A stretch of 64,000 nt of DNA from Planctomycetota bacterium (GTDB lineage Bacteria; Planctomycetota; GCA-002687715; CAIWVZ01), in contig JBGANV010000001.1 of the NCBI GenBank assembly GCA_044222185.1, positions 1,472,001 to 1,536,000 of the forward strand. Reading direction: 5' to 3'. Made by a program: the position numbers and the translations under genes. Positions 1,759 to 39,734 of the stretch are shown here, in pieces. Every line of letters begins with the position of its first letter. Positions within the stretch are counted from its first letter, which is position 1. The notes beneath the pieces were generated by a model, which saw only the letters and a list, made by a program, of their open reading frames with translations, ran no database searches and was not told the DNA's origin.

Positions 1759-1959
1759 TCAGCCTCCACCCACGAACGAGACGATCTCGACTTCGTCGCC
1801 CTCGCGCAGGGCGCGCGTGGCGAACTCGGCGCGCGGCACGACCTCGCGGTTGACCTCGACGGCGACGAGTCTTCGCACGAGGTCGAGCGTCTCGAGGAGT
1901 TGCGAGACGCTCAACTCGCCGGCCAGGTCGCGTCCTTCACCATTGACCACCAGTCTCAC
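1759..1959 (-). CDS. thiS: sulfur carrier protein ThiS
   Basis: 66 aa; [12 protein letters not shown] and C-terminal EIVSFVGGG; directly upstream of thiG. Confidence 0.97.
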
Positions 1960-3407
1960 GACGCGACTCCGTCGTGGGGCGCTGGCTCGTGCGTCGAATC
2001 ATCGTCCGCCGCGGGCACCGGCCCCTTGCGGATCTGCTCGACGCGATACTGGAGCGCGCGCCGCGTCAGCCCGAGCACACGTGCCGTACGGGAGAGGTTG
2101 CCTCCGCACCGCGCGAGGGCGCCCAGGATGATGTCCCGCTCGAGCTGATCGAGCGTGAGGTCGGTGTCGAACAACGTGTCGAGGGTCGACGACACCGTAC
2201 CGGCGGGCTTGCCGCCGCTGAGCACGACGTCCGCCGCCTCGATCTGCTCCCCGGGGGCGAGGACGACCGCGCGCTCGATGCAATTCTCCAACTCGCGAAC
2301 GTTGCCCGGCCACGAATAGGTCAGCAGCCTGTCGAGCGCGGCGCGGCTGAGCCCGCTGAAATGGCGGCCGTTCTGCTCGCAGAACCGAGTGAGGAAGTGC
2401 TGCGCGAGGACGGGCACGTCCTCCGCTCGCTCGCGAAGCGGCGGCATGACGATGGGGATGACGTTCAGCCGGTAGTAGAGGTCCTCCCGGAAGCGGCCCT
2501 CGCGGACCATCTCGGCGAGGTCGCGGTTCGTGGCCGCGAGCACCCGCACGTCCACTTGCTTCACGGCGTTCGACCCCAACGGCTCGATCTCGCGCTCCTG
2601 GAGCACGCGCAAGAGCTTGGGCTGGAGGTGCAGCGGGAGCTCACCGATCTCGTCCAGGAAGATCGTGCCTCCGTGGGCGGCCTCGAACTTGCCCTTGCGC
2701 TCACCGATGGCGCCAGTGAATGCCCCGCGCAGGTGGCCGAACAACTCGTCCTCGAGGAGGTTGTCCGGCATCGCGGCGCAGTTGACCTTCACGTAGGGTC
2801 CGTTCCGCCGCGGGCTCCGCACGTGGATGGTCCGCGCGACGAGTTCCTTGCCCGTGCCGGATTCGCCCATGATGAGTACGGTCGAGTGACTGTGGGCGAC
2901 CTGCTCGACCGCCGCCATCACGTCACGGATCCGCTTCGAGACTCCGATGACGGAGACTCGGTCTTGGAGGGCATCGACGGCCTCTCGCAGCCGCGTGTTC
3001 TCGTCCTCCAGCGACCGGAGGCGCATGGCCTTGCGGAGCTTCAGCACGAGTTCGTCGGTGTCTACGGGCTTCGTCACGAAGTCGAACACGCCGCGCCGCA
3101 TGGCCTCGACCGCCGTCTCGAGCGTGCCGAACGCCGTCGTGATGATGAACAGCGTCTCGCGTCGGATCTTCGTCACCTGCTCGTAGAGCTCGAGCCCGGT
3201 CATGCCCGGCATGCGGAAATCGGAGATGACGACCTCCGGGCGGAATCGGCGCACTTCTGCGAGGGCCTCGTTCGGAGAGAACACGGCGCGCGCGTCGAAG
3301 CCCTCGCCGGCGAGTACGTCGGCGAGAAGGCCCGCTTGGACGCGTTCGTCGTCCACGACGAGGACGCGAGGCTTGGAAGCAACCTGGCCCGCAGCGGCGG
3401 AAGTCAT
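1956..3407 (-). CDS. sigma54-dependent response regulator (NtrC family: REC-AAA+-Fis HTH)
   Basis: VLVVDDE receiver, GESGTGKE Walker [23 protein letters not shown]-terminal HTH. Confidence 0.96.
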
Positions 3408-35026: not shown

Positions 35027-35775
35027 ATCGAGCCCCCGCACGAAGCCACGAACGCCGCCAATCCAAGGCCGCTCCGGCGAAGACGTCGAAAGCCCCGGCC
35101 AATGGAGAGACCAGGGTGCGGAAACCGCCGCCTGCGACCGACCGGATGCCGGCAATCCTCGCCCGCCTCGGCGAGGCATACGGTGAAAGCACTTGCAGCC
35201 TGACGCACCGCAGCCCGTTCGAGCTTCTCGTCGCCACGATCCTGTCGGCGCAGTGCACGGACGCTCGCGTCAACATGGTGACCCCCGTACTGTTCGCCCG
35301 ATGTCCGGATCCGGCCGCGCTCGACGCCATTCCGATCGAGGAATTGGAGTCGATCATCAAGTCCACGGGCTTCTTCCACAACAAGGCGAGATCCCTGAAG
35401 GGCGCCGCGCACACGCTCGTCACCGAGTTCGGCGGGAACGTCCCAAAGACGATGGAAGAGCTGCTGCGGCTTCCCGGCGTGGCAAGAAAAACGGCCAATG
35501 TGGTGCTCGGAACGGGCTTCGGAATCGCTTCGGGCGTGGTCGTCGACACGCACGTCGGGAGGATCTCGGGCCGGCTTGGATTCACGCGCCACGAGGACCC
35601 GAAGAAGATCGAACAGGATCTCCTCCGACTCGTTCCCAGGTCCCACTGGATCAGCTTCTCGCACCAACTGATCGACCACGGCCGCGCCGTGTGCATGGCG
35701 CGATCACCGGCCTGCGACCGATGCTTCCTCCTGGCGGACTGTCCCTACGGACGGGCGCGCACGAAGAAACCATGA
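35023..35775 (+). CDS. nth: endonuclease III
   Basis: LSAQCTD, HhH LPGVARKTANVV, VDTH, C-x6-C-x2-C-x5-C Fe-S motif; true start may lie further downstream. Confidence 0.96.
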   Translation: MNRAPARSHERRQSKAAPAKTSKAPANGETRVRKPPPATDRMPAILARLGEAYGESTCSLTHRSPFELLVATILSAQCTDARVNMVTPVLFARCPDPAALDAIPIEELESIIKSTGFFHNKARSLKGAAHTLVTEFGGNVPKTMEELLRLPGVARKTANVVLGTGFGIASGVVVDTHVGRISGRLGFTRHEDPKKIEQDLLRLVPRSHWISFSHQLIDHGRAVCMARSPACDRCFLLADCPYGRARTKKP

Positions 35776-35856
35776 CGTAGGTTCCGGGTTTCGGAGAGAA
35801 CCGGACCAAACGTTCATCCCAGGCGTCTCCCCTGACGGCAATGCCAGGAGACTCGG

Positions 35857-36252
35857 ATGAACACTTTCAGCGTCGTGGTCGTGGCTTCTCTACTCTTCGC
35901 GTTCCCCGCGAGTGCGCCGGCTCAGGGGTCGGACGTCGACGTTTCGAAGGACGTCGCGCAGCGATTCGTCAAGACGAAGGGCGCCTCTCTCGTGGGCAGA
36001 CACATCCACTGGCACGTCCCGGCAAGGGCCCTGTCTGACGCCAAGAAGGCCCGGGGCGGCCAGTTGCTTTTCGTGTCGCAGGGGATCGGGATCATCGTCG
36101 CGCAGTACTCATCGTCGCTCGAGGAAGTCCGGCGTCGGGGAGGCGCAGCCTGTGTGCGGGGTCAGGTGGTCATGGTCCCGCCCAAGGAACGCACTCCTGG
36201 CGACCCTGAACACGTCGTCGTCGTGACGACGCTGTCACATCGCAAACACTGA
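35857..36252 (+). CDS. hypothetical exported protein
   Basis: Signal peptide ending APA-Q; SD GGAG. Confidence 0.7.
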   Translation: MNTFSVVVVASLLFAFPASAPAQGSDVDVSKDVAQRFVKTKGASLVGRHIHWHVPARALSDAKKARGGQLLFVSQGIGIIVAQYSSSLEEVRRRGGAACVRGQVVMVPPKERTPGDPEHVVVVTTLSHRKH

Positions 36253-36288
36253 ATCGCGGTGGCGTCGGCGCTGGACCGCCTGCTCCAG

Positions 36289-36445
36289 AAAAGGCGCGAG
36301 ACCGCCCGCACCTTGCGGCGCGAGCGGCCTCGTCGTGGGCCCGGGGGCTACGCCCCTCCAACACGGAGGAGGATTGGCGCCGACGAACTCGATGGAGCGA
36401 ACCTTGTATCGTCGGCGACCGGTCAACCGTCTCCCAACCGGACAC
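36289..36445 (-). ncRNA. candidate sigma54-dependent small RNA (~155 nt)
   Basis: Downstream of the sigma54 promoter; 9-bp stem 36378-36417, CU-rich segment, 15-16-bp GCAA-capped stem 36298-36331, then TTTT; no credible ORF. Confidence 0.6.
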
Positions 36446-36454
36446 GATCCCCTA

Positions 36455-36472
36455 TTGCATGGGGCGTGCCAA
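36455..36472 (-). promoter_or_regulatory. sigma54 (-24/-12) promoter
   Basis: Minus strand TTGGCACGCCCCATGCAA, exact GG-N10-GC spacing, one mismatch to TGGCACG-N4-TTGCW. Confidence 0.75.
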
Positions 36473-36612
36473 ACGCAGCACGGGCCGAACGACGGCGAAA
36501 AACGGGTGTTTTTCCGCGCGACCATCGCAGTGGACCGGCGCCGATCACGCCGAGGACGACGCGGTGAATGTCCCGTGAAGAGGACGCTCCACGTCCACGC
36601 CGAAGGTCGGAT

Positions 36613-37992
36613 TCAGACCTCCCGATCGAGGGGCAACCGGTCGACTTCAGGAAACCGGGCAAGCGCGTCGGTCAGAACGTCGCGTGCCCGAAGCAGGGCC
36701 GCGCGGTCAGCGGCCTCGAACCTGACCGTGAGGTTGGGAGTCGTATTGCTGGCACGGACGAGGAACCAGCCCCCGTCCACGCGCACCCGCGCGCCGTCGA
36801 TCGCTACGACGGGATATCGCGCGGCAAACTGGGACCTGAGTGCATCCACGACGGCGAACTTCCGTGCATCGGGGCACGGAACCTTGATCTCCGCCGTGGA
36901 CACGAGGTCGGGGATCCCGGAGAGCAGCCCGCTCGCCGGGCCGCCCGACTCGTCCATGAGCTTCAGGAACGACAACGCCGCGTAGAGCGAGTCGTCGATG
37001 GGGACGTAACCGCGGTTGAAGACGAGGTGACCGGAAAGCTCACCACCGAAGATCGCGTCCTCGGTCTTGATGTCGCGCTTCAGTAGCGAGTGCCCCGTCA
37101 CGCCCATCAGTGGCACGCCGCCGTGAGCCCGGATGTCGGACTCGAGGAAGTCGCTGCACTTCACGTCGTACCGGATCTTCCCCCCACCATGGCGTCGCAG
37201 GAGGTCGCGCGCGAACACGACGATGAGGTGATCGGCGGGAATCTTCCGGCCGCGCTCGTCGATCACCCCGACGCGGTCGCCGTCGCCGTCGAATCCGAGC
37301 CCGAGGTCGGCATGCTCCGTGAGGACTCGCTGCCGCATCACCTCCATGTAGGCCGGGACCTCGGGGTCCGGGATGTGGTTGGGGAAGTCTCCATCCGGCT
37401 CGCAGTAGAGCGCCGTGACGTCGACGCCGAGCTGCTTCATCGCCTCGAGCACGACGGGACCCATGACGCCGTTGCCGCAGTCGACGACGATGCGAAACCT
37501 CCGGCGGAACCGGAACCGCGGCAGAAGATCTGCGAAGTACTCGGCGAGGTACGCGCGCTGGCTGACGCGGCCCGGCCCGGACGCGAAGGCGCCACGCATG
37601 GCTTCGTCGCGCAACGATCGGATGCCGTCCCCCCAAACGCTGTCGGCACCCGCGCAGACCTTGAGCCCGTTGTCCGATTTCGGGTTGTGGCTCCCGGTCA
37701 CCATGATCCCGCCGCCGAGCGCCAGTCGATGGAGCGCGTGATAGAGGACCGGCGTCGGAACGACTCCCAGGTCGTGCACGTGAAGCCCGGTCGCCCGGAG
37801 GCCCTCCATTGCGGCTGCCGCCAGCGCCGGCGACGAATGCCGGACATCCCGCCCGACGGCGACCGTGGAGCCTTGGGCGTTGCGGATCCGCGTGCCGAGC
37901 GCGGCGCCGACGCCGCGCGCGACCTCGGGACTCAGGACTTCGGGAGCGCGTCCGCGGATGTCGTATTCACGAAAGATGGCCGGGTCGTACAT
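36613..37992 (-). CDS. phosphomannomutase/phosphoglucomutase (alpha-D-phosphohexomutase)
   Basis: IFREYDIRG, TGSHNP, FDGDGDR, GELSGH, VRASNT. Confidence 0.95.
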   Translation of the reverse strand: MYDPAIFREYDIRGRAPEVLSPEVARGVGAALGTRIRNAQGSTVAVGRDVRHSSPALAAAAMEGLRATGLHVHDLGVVPTPVLYHALHRLALGGGIMVTGSHNPKSDNGLKVCAGADSVWGDGIRSLRDEAMRGAFASGPGRVSQRAYLAEYFADLLPRFRFRRRFRIVVDCGNGVMGPVVLEAMKQLGVDVTALYCEPDGDFPNHIPDPEVPAYMEVMRQRVLTEHADLGLGFDGDGDRVGVIDERGRKIPADHLIVVFARDLLRRHGGGKIRYDVKCSDFLESDIRAHGGVPLMGVTGHSLLKRDIKTEDAIFGGELSGHLVFNRGYVPIDDSLYAALSFLKLMDESGGPASGLLSGIPDLVSTAEIKVPCPDARKFAVVDALRSQFAARYPVVAIDGARVRVDGGWFLVRASNTTPNLTVRFEAADRAALLRARDVLTDALARFPEVDRLPLDREV

Positions 37993-38096
37993 GCGGCCAT
38001 GGTACGGAGGCAGCGTTCATCCGTCGATTGCCCATGCCGATCTCCCCCGGCTACACTCCGGCCCACCACGTCGAGCAACGGACGCGGTCACAACCC

Positions 38097-39734
38097 ATGA
38101 TGCAAGCCTGCTTGAACCTCCGATCGGGTGTGCGCCAGACCCGGCCGCTCGCCCGAGCTCTCGGCCGATTCACACAGGGGTTGGCGCTCGCGATGGGCCT
38201 CGCGCTCGCGCTCGTCGGGCAGGAGAGCCGCCCGGCCACCGTGTCCCTCGTGATCCTTCACACGAACGACGTCCATGGGCAGCTCCACTCCGTGCCCGAC
38301 TCGAGGGGACGCGGGGCGGACCGAGGCCCCATGGGGGGGTACCAGGAGCTCGTCACCGCGATCGACGAGGAACGGTCCAAGGTCGCACACAGCGTGCTCG
38401 TGGACGCAGGTGATTGGTTCCAAGGCACTCCCGAGGGAACGCTCAGCCGGGGACGCTGCGCCGTCGAACTGATGAACGCGGCCGGGTATGACTTCGCGGC
38501 GATCGGAAACCACGACTTCGACTGCGGGCAGGACAACCTCGCCGACCTTCTCGAGCTGGCTCGTTTCCGGCCGTTCGCGCGCAACCTCTCGGTTGGGGGC
38601 GCTGCCGGCGACACGCCATCCCCCGCGACGCGACTGGGGGCGGTGCTCGACGGCAGAGTGCTCACTCCCCAACCGGTCGTGGTCGTCGACGGCTTCCGCG
38701 TCGCGTTCGACGGCCTGCTGTCGGAGGAGACGCCGCGCATCAGCTCGAAACGGGTGATGGAAGGACTCGGCGTCGGCGCTGAATCGGACGGCGCGACGCG
38801 CGCGGTGCTGATGACGAAGGGCGCCGGCAAGGCCGACGCCCTCGTCCTCGTCAATCACGTCGGCAAGGACAACAACGTCCAGATTGCGCGCGACCATCCC
38901 GAGATCGACGTCGTGATCGGCGGGCACAACCATCGAGACGTGCTCGAGTCGGGCGTCGTCGTCGAGAGCACGGGCGCACTCATCGCGCAGGCGGCAGCGA
39001 ATTCGCAGGCCCTGGGCATCGTGACGCTCGAGATCGACCCCGTCGCGAAGAAGATCGTCTCGAAGAAGGCCCGTCTCCGACACATCGCGGCGAACCCGGC
39101 CGTGGTGGTCCCCCGGATCGCTCCGATCATCGAGCGACACGAAAAGGCCGTCGCAGCGCTCATGGACGTTCCCGTGGCGAACGTGCCGGTCGCGTTGACG
39201 CGCGAGTGGACGCTCGAGAAACCCTCCCCGCTGGCGAGTTGGATGACGCAGGTCATGATCGACCGCACTCACGCCGACGTCGCGATCCACAACGCCGGTG
39301 GCATCCGCGCCGCGATCCCAGCCGGCGCCGCCCGCGTCCGGGAGCTGTTCCAGGTTTCGCCGTTCGGCAACCGCCTCGTCGTGATCGACGTCACGGCGAA
39401 GGACGTCCGTGAGGTTTGCGAGCGGAGTGCCAGGAACCCGTCGCGAGGGTGCCACATCCGCGGCATCGAGGTTCACTGGACGCAGACCGGCGAGGGTCCC
39501 GTACAGGTCACGAAGCTCGTGAGCAAAGGGAAGGTGCTATCCGACGGAGATCGCCTCCGCGTCGCGACGACGGACTTCCTCGCTGGCGGCGCCGACAACT
39601 TCCCGAGCTTGCGGAGCGCGGCCCCGGTCGAAGACCTGGGGATCACGCTCCTCGACGCGACGCTCGAGGCGGCGCGCTCACAAAAGACCGTCACCGCCCC
39701 GGACGGAAACGCCTGGGTCCGCGATACGAACTGA
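38097..39734 (+). CDS. exported 5'-nucleotidase (bifunctional metallophosphatase, UshA-like)
   Basis: LHTNDVHG, DAGD, GNHDFD, GGHNH, NAGGIR, PFGN, DFLAGGAD; signal-like segment; start uncertain. Confidence 0.92.
   Translation: MMQACLNLRSGVRQTRPLARALGRFTQGLALAMGLALALVGQESRPATVSLVILHTNDVHGQLHSVPDSRGRGADRGPMGGYQELVTAIDEERSKVAHSVLVDAGDWFQGTPEGTLSRGRCAVELMNAAGYDFAAIGNHDFDCGQDNLADLLELARFRPFARNLSVGGAAGDTPSPATRLGAVLDGRVLTPQPVVVVDGFRVAFDGLLSEETPRISSKRVMEGLGVGAESDGATRAVLMTKGAGKADALVLVNHVGKDNNVQIARDHPEIDVVIGGHNHRDVLESGVVVESTGALIAQAAANSQALGIVTLEIDPVAKKIVSKKARLRHIAANPAVVVPRIAPIIERHEKAVAALMDVPVANVPVALTREWTLEKPSPLASWMTQVMIDRTHADVAIHNAGGIRAAIPAGAARVRELFQVSPFGNRLVVIDVTAKDVREVCERSARNPSRGCHIRGIEVHWTQTGEGPVQVTKLVSKGKVLSDGDRLRVATTDFLAGGADNFPSLRSAAPVEDLGITLLDATLEAARSQKTVTAPDGNAWVRDTN

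Follow-up and report, generated by a model that had tools for sequence, protein, structure and literature searches.

A probable sigma-54-driven structured RNA gene conserved in a class of Planctomycetota

The 64,000-nucleotide (nt) stretch of a Planctomycetota genome analysed here (G000:C1:1472001-1536000, G000 being the source genome; hereafter the window) contains an intergenic gap of 360 nt (36253-36612) between a phosphohexomutase gene on the minus strand and a 131-aa open reading frame (ORF) on the plus strand. From a comparison across 23 Planctomycetota genomes of the class (families f1-f4), we conclude that the gap probably holds a gene with a transcription unit of its own, which has a sigma-54 promoter, specifies a structured non-coding RNA of ~159 nt and is conserved in the class, and we put the probability of this reading at roughly 0.8. 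The RNA is a new family, absent from Rfam, of an already known kind of regulator. A sequence-only reading of the window had proposed a self-contained unit of sigma-54 promoter, structured RNA and terminator at this locus; all the minus-strand elements that it listed lie where it placed them, and the unit is conserved in relatives with covariation. Within the source genome alone the promoter motif and the fold stand only weakly above chance, and it is the comparative evidence that decides.

Conservation of the unit within the class

The RNA was found in 10 of the 23 class genomes by covariance models, synteny and pattern searches: 2 of 5 in f1, 5 of 8 in f3, 2 of 9 in f2 and the single genome of f4. 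In the other 13 it was not found by searches of limited sensitivity (model R2 missed the known copy in G009). R1, a single-sequence covariance model of the RNA alone with the promoter excluded, retrieved a full-length match at G002:C278:361-514 (29.9 bits), in a genome of the same family as the source. This locus opens with the C-terminus of the orthologous mutase and carries CGGCAC-GGTCG-ATGCA ~135 nt past the stop codon, including the unusual A at -15, and the RNA starts 25 nt after the promoter GG. Reading by synteny placed the unit downstream of the phosphomutase in G009 as well, with the promoter TGGCAC-GGTGC-CTGCT. The pattern GGCAC-N6-TGC-N{50,80}-CGCTCCATC matched in 9 of the 23 class genomes, against one match for the reversed control; seven of the nine matches are the RNA (G000, G002, G009, G021, G015, G019 and G013), and those in G020 and G022 were rejected as not being it. 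R3, a model built from seven sequences, was applied unfiltered to the ~4.7 kb that follow the mutase in a further 12 genomes and recovered three divergent copies, in G005 (29.7 bits), G008 (21.0 bits) and G007 (17.0 bits), preceded by GGTAC-N5-TTGTT, GGTAC-N5-TTGAT and GGCAC-N5-TTGTT, respectively. The promoters of G002, G009, G005, G008 and G007 were not used in finding those copies.

In eight of the ten genomes the RNA lies on the contig and strand of the mutase gene, 0.2-4.4 kb downstream. In five of them (G019, G013, G005, G008 and G007) the RNA and its own promoter are 2.2-4.4 kb from the mutase, with other coding sequence between, and the concern that the unit might be nothing but a phosphomutase terminator is thereby answered.

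Seven homologs (G000, G002, G009, G021, G015, G019 and G013), each folded separately by minimum free energy (MFE), gave one architecture: P1, the long closing helix; P2, a hairpin with the motif CGCUCCAUC(G/A)A in its loop of 20-29 nt; P3, a hairpin whose 5' arm is of the CUCC type and whose 3' arm is of the GGAG type; and a terminator with a U-rich tail. Family f3 alone has an extra short 5' hairpin with a GNRA loop. The P2 stem that flanks the motif differs in sequence between members yet remains complementary (CGCCGACGA, CGCGGGAC, CGUCA, CGGGUUGCG, GGGUCGC and CACCGCG). At 208-218 nt the RNAs of G005 and G008 exceed these in length, and their fold is broadly similar. Nine of the ten homologs terminate in a strong hairpin with a U-rich tract behind it, G007 being the one without a clear terminator.

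Covariation among relatives, which had been set out as a check on the proposal, is borne out. In alignment A7 (seven sequences, 51 pairs, 332 cells; fitted to the structure by a model), 78.9% of the cells pair, compared with 47-55.5% when the partners are slid, 25 of the 51 pairs are changed on both sides, and the covariation score lies above those of all 500 shuffles. Ten of the 18 pairs of P1 are changed on both sides, as are four of the seven pairs of P3 (helix 4 of the alignment), in which 87.8% of cells are paired. An alignment made with MAFFT only, not fitted to the structure, has compensatory changes at 20 of 33 predicted pairs.

A BLAST search with the gap sequence in 40 relatives brought up no more than two short matches, both put down to chance: one inside a P-loop ATPase gene of G008 and a weak one in G020. 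The whole-genome runs of R1, R2 and R3 scored only ~123-129 candidates per genome, and their weak matches were tRNAs, terminators or coding sequence. The loose pattern CGCTCCATC-N{8,35}-TCCTCC proved unspecific, matching 217 of 401 genomes, and outside the class the combined promoter and motif pattern gave 11 matches in 383 genomes, which is chance level (the reversed control gave 32 over all 401). The phosphomutase protein found nothing above 64% identity in collections of genome and metagenome contigs. At three loci (L018, L019 and L095) the endonuclease III gene (nth) is directly convergent with and abuts the mutase gene, and there is no RNA between the two.

The promoter and its upstream region

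On the minus strand, TTGGCACGCCCCATGCAA (36472-36455) has GG at 36470/36469 and GC at 36458/36457. It contains the sigma-54-type promoter TGGCAC-GCCCC-ATGCA (36471-36456), in which GG at -25/-24 and GC at -13/-12 are separated by 10 nt and which has one mismatch to the consensus TGGCAC-N5-TTGCA. Conservation of the -24/-12 site had been named as a point on which the proposal turns, and the site is kept in all ten homologs, as GG(C/T)AC-N6-TG at a fixed spacing upstream of the RNA. Since the five spacer bases vary freely and the GG and TG are fixed, the element behaves as a protein-binding site rather than as a feature of the RNA. The inferred +1 lands on the first base pairs of the RNA structure, and in the seven folded members the structure starts at most 3 nt from it. 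Seven of the ten homologs have GC at -13/-12; in the f2 and f4 copies its place is taken by GT or GA, which should weaken the promoter or alter its behaviour. As read at L311, L312 and L319, the f2/f4 copies carry TTGTT or TTGAT at -12 and keep GG(C/T)AC at -24; their departure at -12 is either a tolerated sigma-54 variant or a changed promoter type.

The source assembly (7.08 Mb in 16 contigs, 67.5% G+C, 93.8% complete) contains rpoN (PF04552 match, 193.7 bits) and 14 strong matches to the Sigma54_activat domain of enhancer-binding proteins (PF00158, >217 bits). The NtrC-type gene at 1956-3407, which had been put forward as a possible activator, is one of these 14, and nothing singles it out. 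Sites with at most one mismatch to TGGCAC-N5-TTGCA number 56 in the genome, 19 of them (34%) intergenic against an intergenic fraction of 14.8% by a crude gene map, an enrichment of ~2.3-fold, from which it follows that a sigma-54 regulon of standard consensus exists, though any single site could be chance.

Further upstream, at 36554-36596 on the minus strand (about -110 to -151), lies a candidate enhancer, or activator-binding, region with the half-sites GGACG, CGTCC, GGACA and CGTCC. At least four GGAC(A/G)/(C/T)GTCC half-sites per 50 nt occur at a frequency of 2.8e-4 in random windows of this genome. Between -30 and -230 of the ten homologs we counted 31 half-sites where 13.8 were expected; dyads resembling GAGGACA...TGTCCTC...GAGGACA stand at -138 to -175 in G009, G019, G013 and G021, and a similar dyad stands at -160 to -173 in G008. 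A regulon search by this motif was unproductive: among 457 GGCA(C/T)-N6-TGC sites only one other has four upstream half-sites, and it is taken to be chance because it sits inside a ribosomal-protein operon. Between the candidate enhancer and the promoter is an A/T-tract palindrome, GGAAAAAC-ACCC-GTTTTTC (36497-36515, minus strand; -52 to -70), which may form a DNA bend, and comparable upstream A-tracts (GGGAAAC, GAGAAAAC and GGGAAACCGGAAATC) are visible in G002, G009 and G019.

Fold, loop and neighbourhood in the source genome

The predicted RNA runs on the minus strand from 36445, a start given by the promoter geometry, to ~36287, an end given by the U-tract. In the MFE folds the 5' arm of P1 (36428-36443) pairs with its 3' arm at 36339-36352, which is also placed there by alignment A7. 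The P2 hairpin (36376-36420) has a stem of 36409-36420 with 36376-36386 and a loop at 36387-36408; its core, CGCCGACGA (36417-36409) with TCGTCGGCG (36386-36378), is complementary at 9 of 9 positions. A CU-rich run, CCAAUCCUCCUCC (36377-36365), leads into P3 (36371-36353), a hairpin of 7 bp, CUCCUCC-GUGUU-GGAGGGG, whose arms resemble Shine-Dalgarno (SD) and anti-SD sequences.

The intrinsic terminator occupies 36332-36287 on the same strand, with a stem at 36332-36297 closed by a GCAA loop, then CGCC and UUUUCU (36292-36287). Its stem has 16 pairs, 12 of them G-C, and its short U-tract is set off by 2-4 nt; it is the only terminator-like site within 35700-37000. When the arms are paired by hand they include one A-U and three G-U pairs. 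The earlier argument from strand, which used these G-U pairs and the GCAA loop, is sound: on the plus strand C-A mismatches would stand in place of the G-U pairs, and the hairpin is therefore specific to the minus strand. Terminators of the class share the form CCGCCCGC, a GNRA-type loop and GCGGGCGG, followed by a short U-tract (L158, L159, L160, L162 and the window at 36297-36332), and because this form recurs, single-sequence models catch many unrelated terminators.

The whole RNA has a folding z of -3.79, and 0 of 200 shuffles fold as well; without the terminator the body gives a modest z of -2.04, with 6 of 200 shuffles as good. The folding energy is -87 kcal/mol for the minus strand and -73 kcal/mol for the plus strand. 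Nowhere in the window did an Rfam 15 model reach its gathering score (0 matches), and the best permissive matches within 36200-36660 reached 12.5-15.8 bits at E 7-9. The RNA is single-copy in its own genome, where it recurs only as terminator-like pieces.

Within the P2 loop lies the motif CGCUCCAUCGA (36389-36399, minus strand). All 10 homologs carry the form CGCUCCAUC(G/A)A unchanged, a count to be read with the caveat that four of them were found by a pattern that included the motif, and three more by R3, in which it weighs heavily. To judge from its sequence conservation, the motif is likely to be a functional single strand. It also appears a better candidate for a seed than the anti-SD-like CCUCCUCC favoured by the sequence-only reading, which turns out to be paired, as the 5' arm of the conserved P3, and is not invariant in sequence (UUCCC in G013). 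The complement of the loop motif, GAUGGAGCG, contains the ribosome-binding core GGAG together with AUG, which makes the targeting of ribosome-binding sites plausible, as had been proposed, but the target searches returned nothing conserved.

Those searches covered the source genome, the f3 genomes and the neighbouring gene. GATGGAGCG occurs 190 times in the source genome, mostly as in-frame Met-Glu-Arg codons. Five start-proximal candidates were set aside; two of them are DUF5122/Rax2 beta-propeller proteins, and in one of these two the site falls within a longer frame. The other, at C2:73385, has a perfect 11-nt complement to the loop across its start codon, but no match to it at E <= 1e-40 turned up in five further genomes that carry the RNA. 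It belongs to a large set of beta-propeller paralogs of the DUF5122/Rax2 type, encoded at G000:C2:73385-75904 and at least 20 other loci. In the f3 genomes TGATGGAGCGG matched 54 times, compared with 43 times for the control, and nearly all of the 30 sites examined lie inside long ORFs. Against the 5' region of the small secreted-protein gene next to the RNA, in the four genomes that gave a result, 0.20-0.61 of shuffled targets paired with the loop at least as well.

No Hfq (PF17209) and no CsrA (PF02599) was detected in this 93.8%-complete genome (0 matches each), and the RNA is accordingly read as neither an Hfq client nor a CsrA sponge; it has a single GGA-bearing hairpin rather than the many GGA loops of the CsrB/RsmZ type.

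The phosphohexomutase gene (36613-37992, minus strand) encodes a PGM/PMM-family protein with four Pfam domains that falls under every NCBIfam equivalog cut-off (181 bits for GlmM, TIGR01455, whose cut-off is 447). Upstream of it, two long ORFs on opposite strands overlap, at 37809-39734 (plus) and 38088-39476 (minus), and neither is in the crude gene map; the former would be metallophosphoesterase- or 5'-nucleotidase-like, to judge from its visible NDVHG and GNHDFD motifs. The 131-aa ORF (35857-36252, plus strand) is convergent to the RNA, encodes a signal peptide and is without a Pfam or NCBIfam match; nth lies beyond it. Its orthologs (125-136 aa; L250:974-1384, L248:1021-1398, L252:1013-1399 and an L251 ORF ending at 1369) carry the common motifs W-x-I/V-P, EIRRRGG and GDP. 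In G002 the same-strand gene after the RNA encodes a PAS-domain histidine kinase (L161:694-2013, plus strand; H-box-like ASHDLQEPL), which among the RNA-bearing loci read stands beside the RNA only there.

For expression, we mapped the contigs of one metatranscriptome and three DNA runs to the region; bioreactor and activated-sludge sequencing runs hold DNA near-identical to the source genome. The biofilm metatranscriptome X20 has a 349-nt contig on 35930-36278, with one difference, which covers most of the small ORF and ends 19 nt before the terminator hairpin; it could derive from either strand and might reflect carry-over of DNA. The listed X2 and X7 contigs, which are of DNA, likewise give no cover over the hairpin, so that missing cover there is uninformative.

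Weighing the explanations

We hypothesize the following course of events. RNA polymerase with sigma-54 would stay closed on TGGCAC-N5-ATGCA until an enhancer-binding protein, which would occupy the GGAC(A/G)/(C/T)GTCC half-sites at -110 to -151, opened the promoter, possibly with the aid of a bend at the A-tract (-52 to -70); transcription would then stop at the hairpin and U-tract. With a promoter gated in this way by an activator, the RNA would be made only on a specific signal. We tentatively suggest, at rather less than even odds, that it is a trans-acting RNA whose invariant P2 loop pairs with mRNAs, independently of Hfq.

Several of our results weigh against the sigma-54-driven RNA gene or against its action by pairing. 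The genome holds six TGGCAC-N5-WTGCW sites where ~9 are expected from its 67.5% G+C, which is chance level, and in 3 of 10 homologs T or A replaces the near-invariant C at -12. The promoters of G021, G015, G019 and G013 are not independent evidence, since these copies were found by a pattern that requires one. The half-site motif was defined after the data had been seen, and is thus a lead and not a proof; it is weak in G002 and G005 (one half-site each) and absent from the 102 nt of G015 before the contig end. The shuffle statistics of A7 (0 of 500) overstate the case because the alignment was fitted to the structure and G009, G015, G019 and G021 are closely related, and P2 aligns poorly for the two f1 members, with 1-3 unpaired cells at each of its 7 pairs. 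No terminator lies between the mutase stop (36613) and the promoter, so that read-through transcripts probably include the RNA, which may also exist as a 3' untranslated region of the mutase. X20, the only RNA-library run with any of the region, has nothing on the RNA and neither supports nor refutes its expression, and no conserved target for the RNA emerged from the searches of its own genome, the f3 genomes and the neighbouring gene.

The RNA might also be real and sigma-54-driven without pairing at all, binding or sequestering a protein, or touching the translation machinery through its loop and its SD/anti-SD-like hairpin. We consider this somewhat unlikely, although Hfq was not detected, no conserved complementary mRNA site was found, and a motif held in a large framed loop of a three-way junction suits recognition by a protein as well as it suits pairing. 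Many Hfq-independent pairing small RNAs (sRNAs) are known, CsrA was not detected either, the one GGA-bearing hairpin is not the repeated GGA loops of the CsrB/RsmZ class, and no candidate partner gene is linked to the RNA. A further reading seems distinctly improbable: the RNA would be a signal-gated regulator of translation acting by mimicry, its CGCUCCAUC loop and the hairpin of its 16S-tail-like CCUCCU arm with a GGAGG arm directly engaging ribosome-binding sites or the anti-SD of the ribosome, or it would capture an as yet undescribed RNA-binding protein. That the RNA derives chiefly from processing of the 3' end of the upstream gene's mRNA, with little contribution from the -24/-12 element, would fit the lack of a terminator-like site between the phosphomutase stop and the promoter, and the direct succession of phosphomutase and RNA in G000, G002 and G009; it is nonetheless very unlikely, given that the upstream gene differs in G019, G013, G005, G008 and G007 while the promoter spacing remains exact, that the N5 spacer is free while GG and TG are fixed, as in a protein-binding site, and that the structure begins at the inferred +1.

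The unit could instead act in cis on the convergent gene for the 131-aa secreted protein, through colliding transcription or a shared terminator. The orthologous small gene ends 5-35 nt from the 3' end of the RNA in five genomes (G000, G009, G021, G019 and G013), and in the window it lacks a plus-strand terminator-like site of its own. Yet the convergent neighbour in G015 is nth, the small gene of G003 abuts the mutase gene with no RNA between them, interference in cis requires neither an invariant loop nor covarying helices, and the loop shows no excess complementarity to the 5' region of the small gene in the four genomes that gave a result; we give this explanation little credence. It is extremely doubtful that there is no separate gene, with the hairpin terminating the phosphomutase mRNA only and the -24/-12 match due to chance. 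The promoter motif is indeed not enriched genome-wide and the folding z of the body is only -2.0, but the comparative data contradict this account: promoter, motif, covarying structure and terminator are kept together in 10 genomes, and in five of these the unit is kilobases from the phosphomutase. Least credible of all is a small protein encoded in the frame with CGC-TCC-ATC. This frame is open in 7 of 7 members over the span examined; 13 of 21 frames are nearly fully open, however, as expected at 62-69% G+C. The indels between G000 and G002 (1, 2, 2, 3 and 1 nt) break the frame, no start codon with a ribosome-binding site follows the promoter, the frame runs through the terminator, and its G000 and G002 peptides, translated by hand, are unrelated beyond RSIE.

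Taken as a sigma-54-driven RNA gene, the locus has several known relatives in kind, none of which its RNA matches in sequence or structure. Pxr is a sigma-54-driven sRNA, and Kazakov et al. reportedly described sigma-54-driven non-coding RNAs of Desulfovibrio in 2015. The Qrr RNAs are ~100 nt long, depend on Hfq, are often present in several copies and usually lie beside luxO. The RNA described here, in contrast, is single-copy and ~160 nt long, forms a three-way junction and has no activator gene next to it, in a genome where Hfq was not detected. It resembles Qrr1-5 of Vibrio, sRNAs driven by sigma-54 and LuxO according to the available part of PMC10162802, in its orphan -24/-12 promoter, its short terminated RNA and its conserved single-stranded pyrimidine-rich seed (a candidate here). 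GlmY and GlmZ of the Enterobacteriaceae are sRNAs under sigma-54 and the activator GlrR, and, as far as the available part of PMC3045617 describes them, the likeness lies in an sRNA gene that stands alone under a sigma-54 promoter, in activator sites farther upstream (candidates here) with an A/T-rich region before the promoter, and in a structured RNA ending in an intrinsic terminator. The position of our RNA next to a phosphohexomutase gene loosely echoes their amino-sugar theme. It differs from them in matching no Rfam model in sequence or structure, in belonging to another phylum, in the lack of a detected Hfq and in its adjoining mutase, which is below the GlmM cut-off, no link to glmS having been shown. 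Other RpoN-dependent sRNAs are NrsZ and CrcZ in Pseudomonas and CJnc230 in Campylobacter jejuni (available parts of PMC4253122, PMC5175159 and PMC11187230), with which our RNA would share the signal-gated sigma-54 transcription of a regulatory RNA. Their sequences and architectures are unrelated to ours, and CrcZ titrates Hfq, which was not detected here.

The regulatory RNAs of the Planctomycetota are almost unexplored, and we saw no cultured member of this lineage. No paper on planctomycete sRNAs was among the literature-search matches listed, and PMC12316311, in its available part, discusses the protein-coding sigma-54 regulons of Planctomycetia, with 0 occurrences of 'sRNA', 'small RNA' or 'non-coding'. 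Sigma-54-driven sRNAs are already well known, and the finding reveals no new principle. If the mimicry or protein-capture reading were true, the RNA would represent a type of global switch under sigma-54 control that is not described in Planctomycetota. What the finding supplies is a conserved RNA family outside Rfam, a probable on-switch for it in the sigma-54 promoter with candidate enhancer sites, and an 11-nt invariant loop as an experimental starting point, and with these a way into the study of signal-dependent post-transcriptional control in organisms seemingly without the usual sRNA chaperones.

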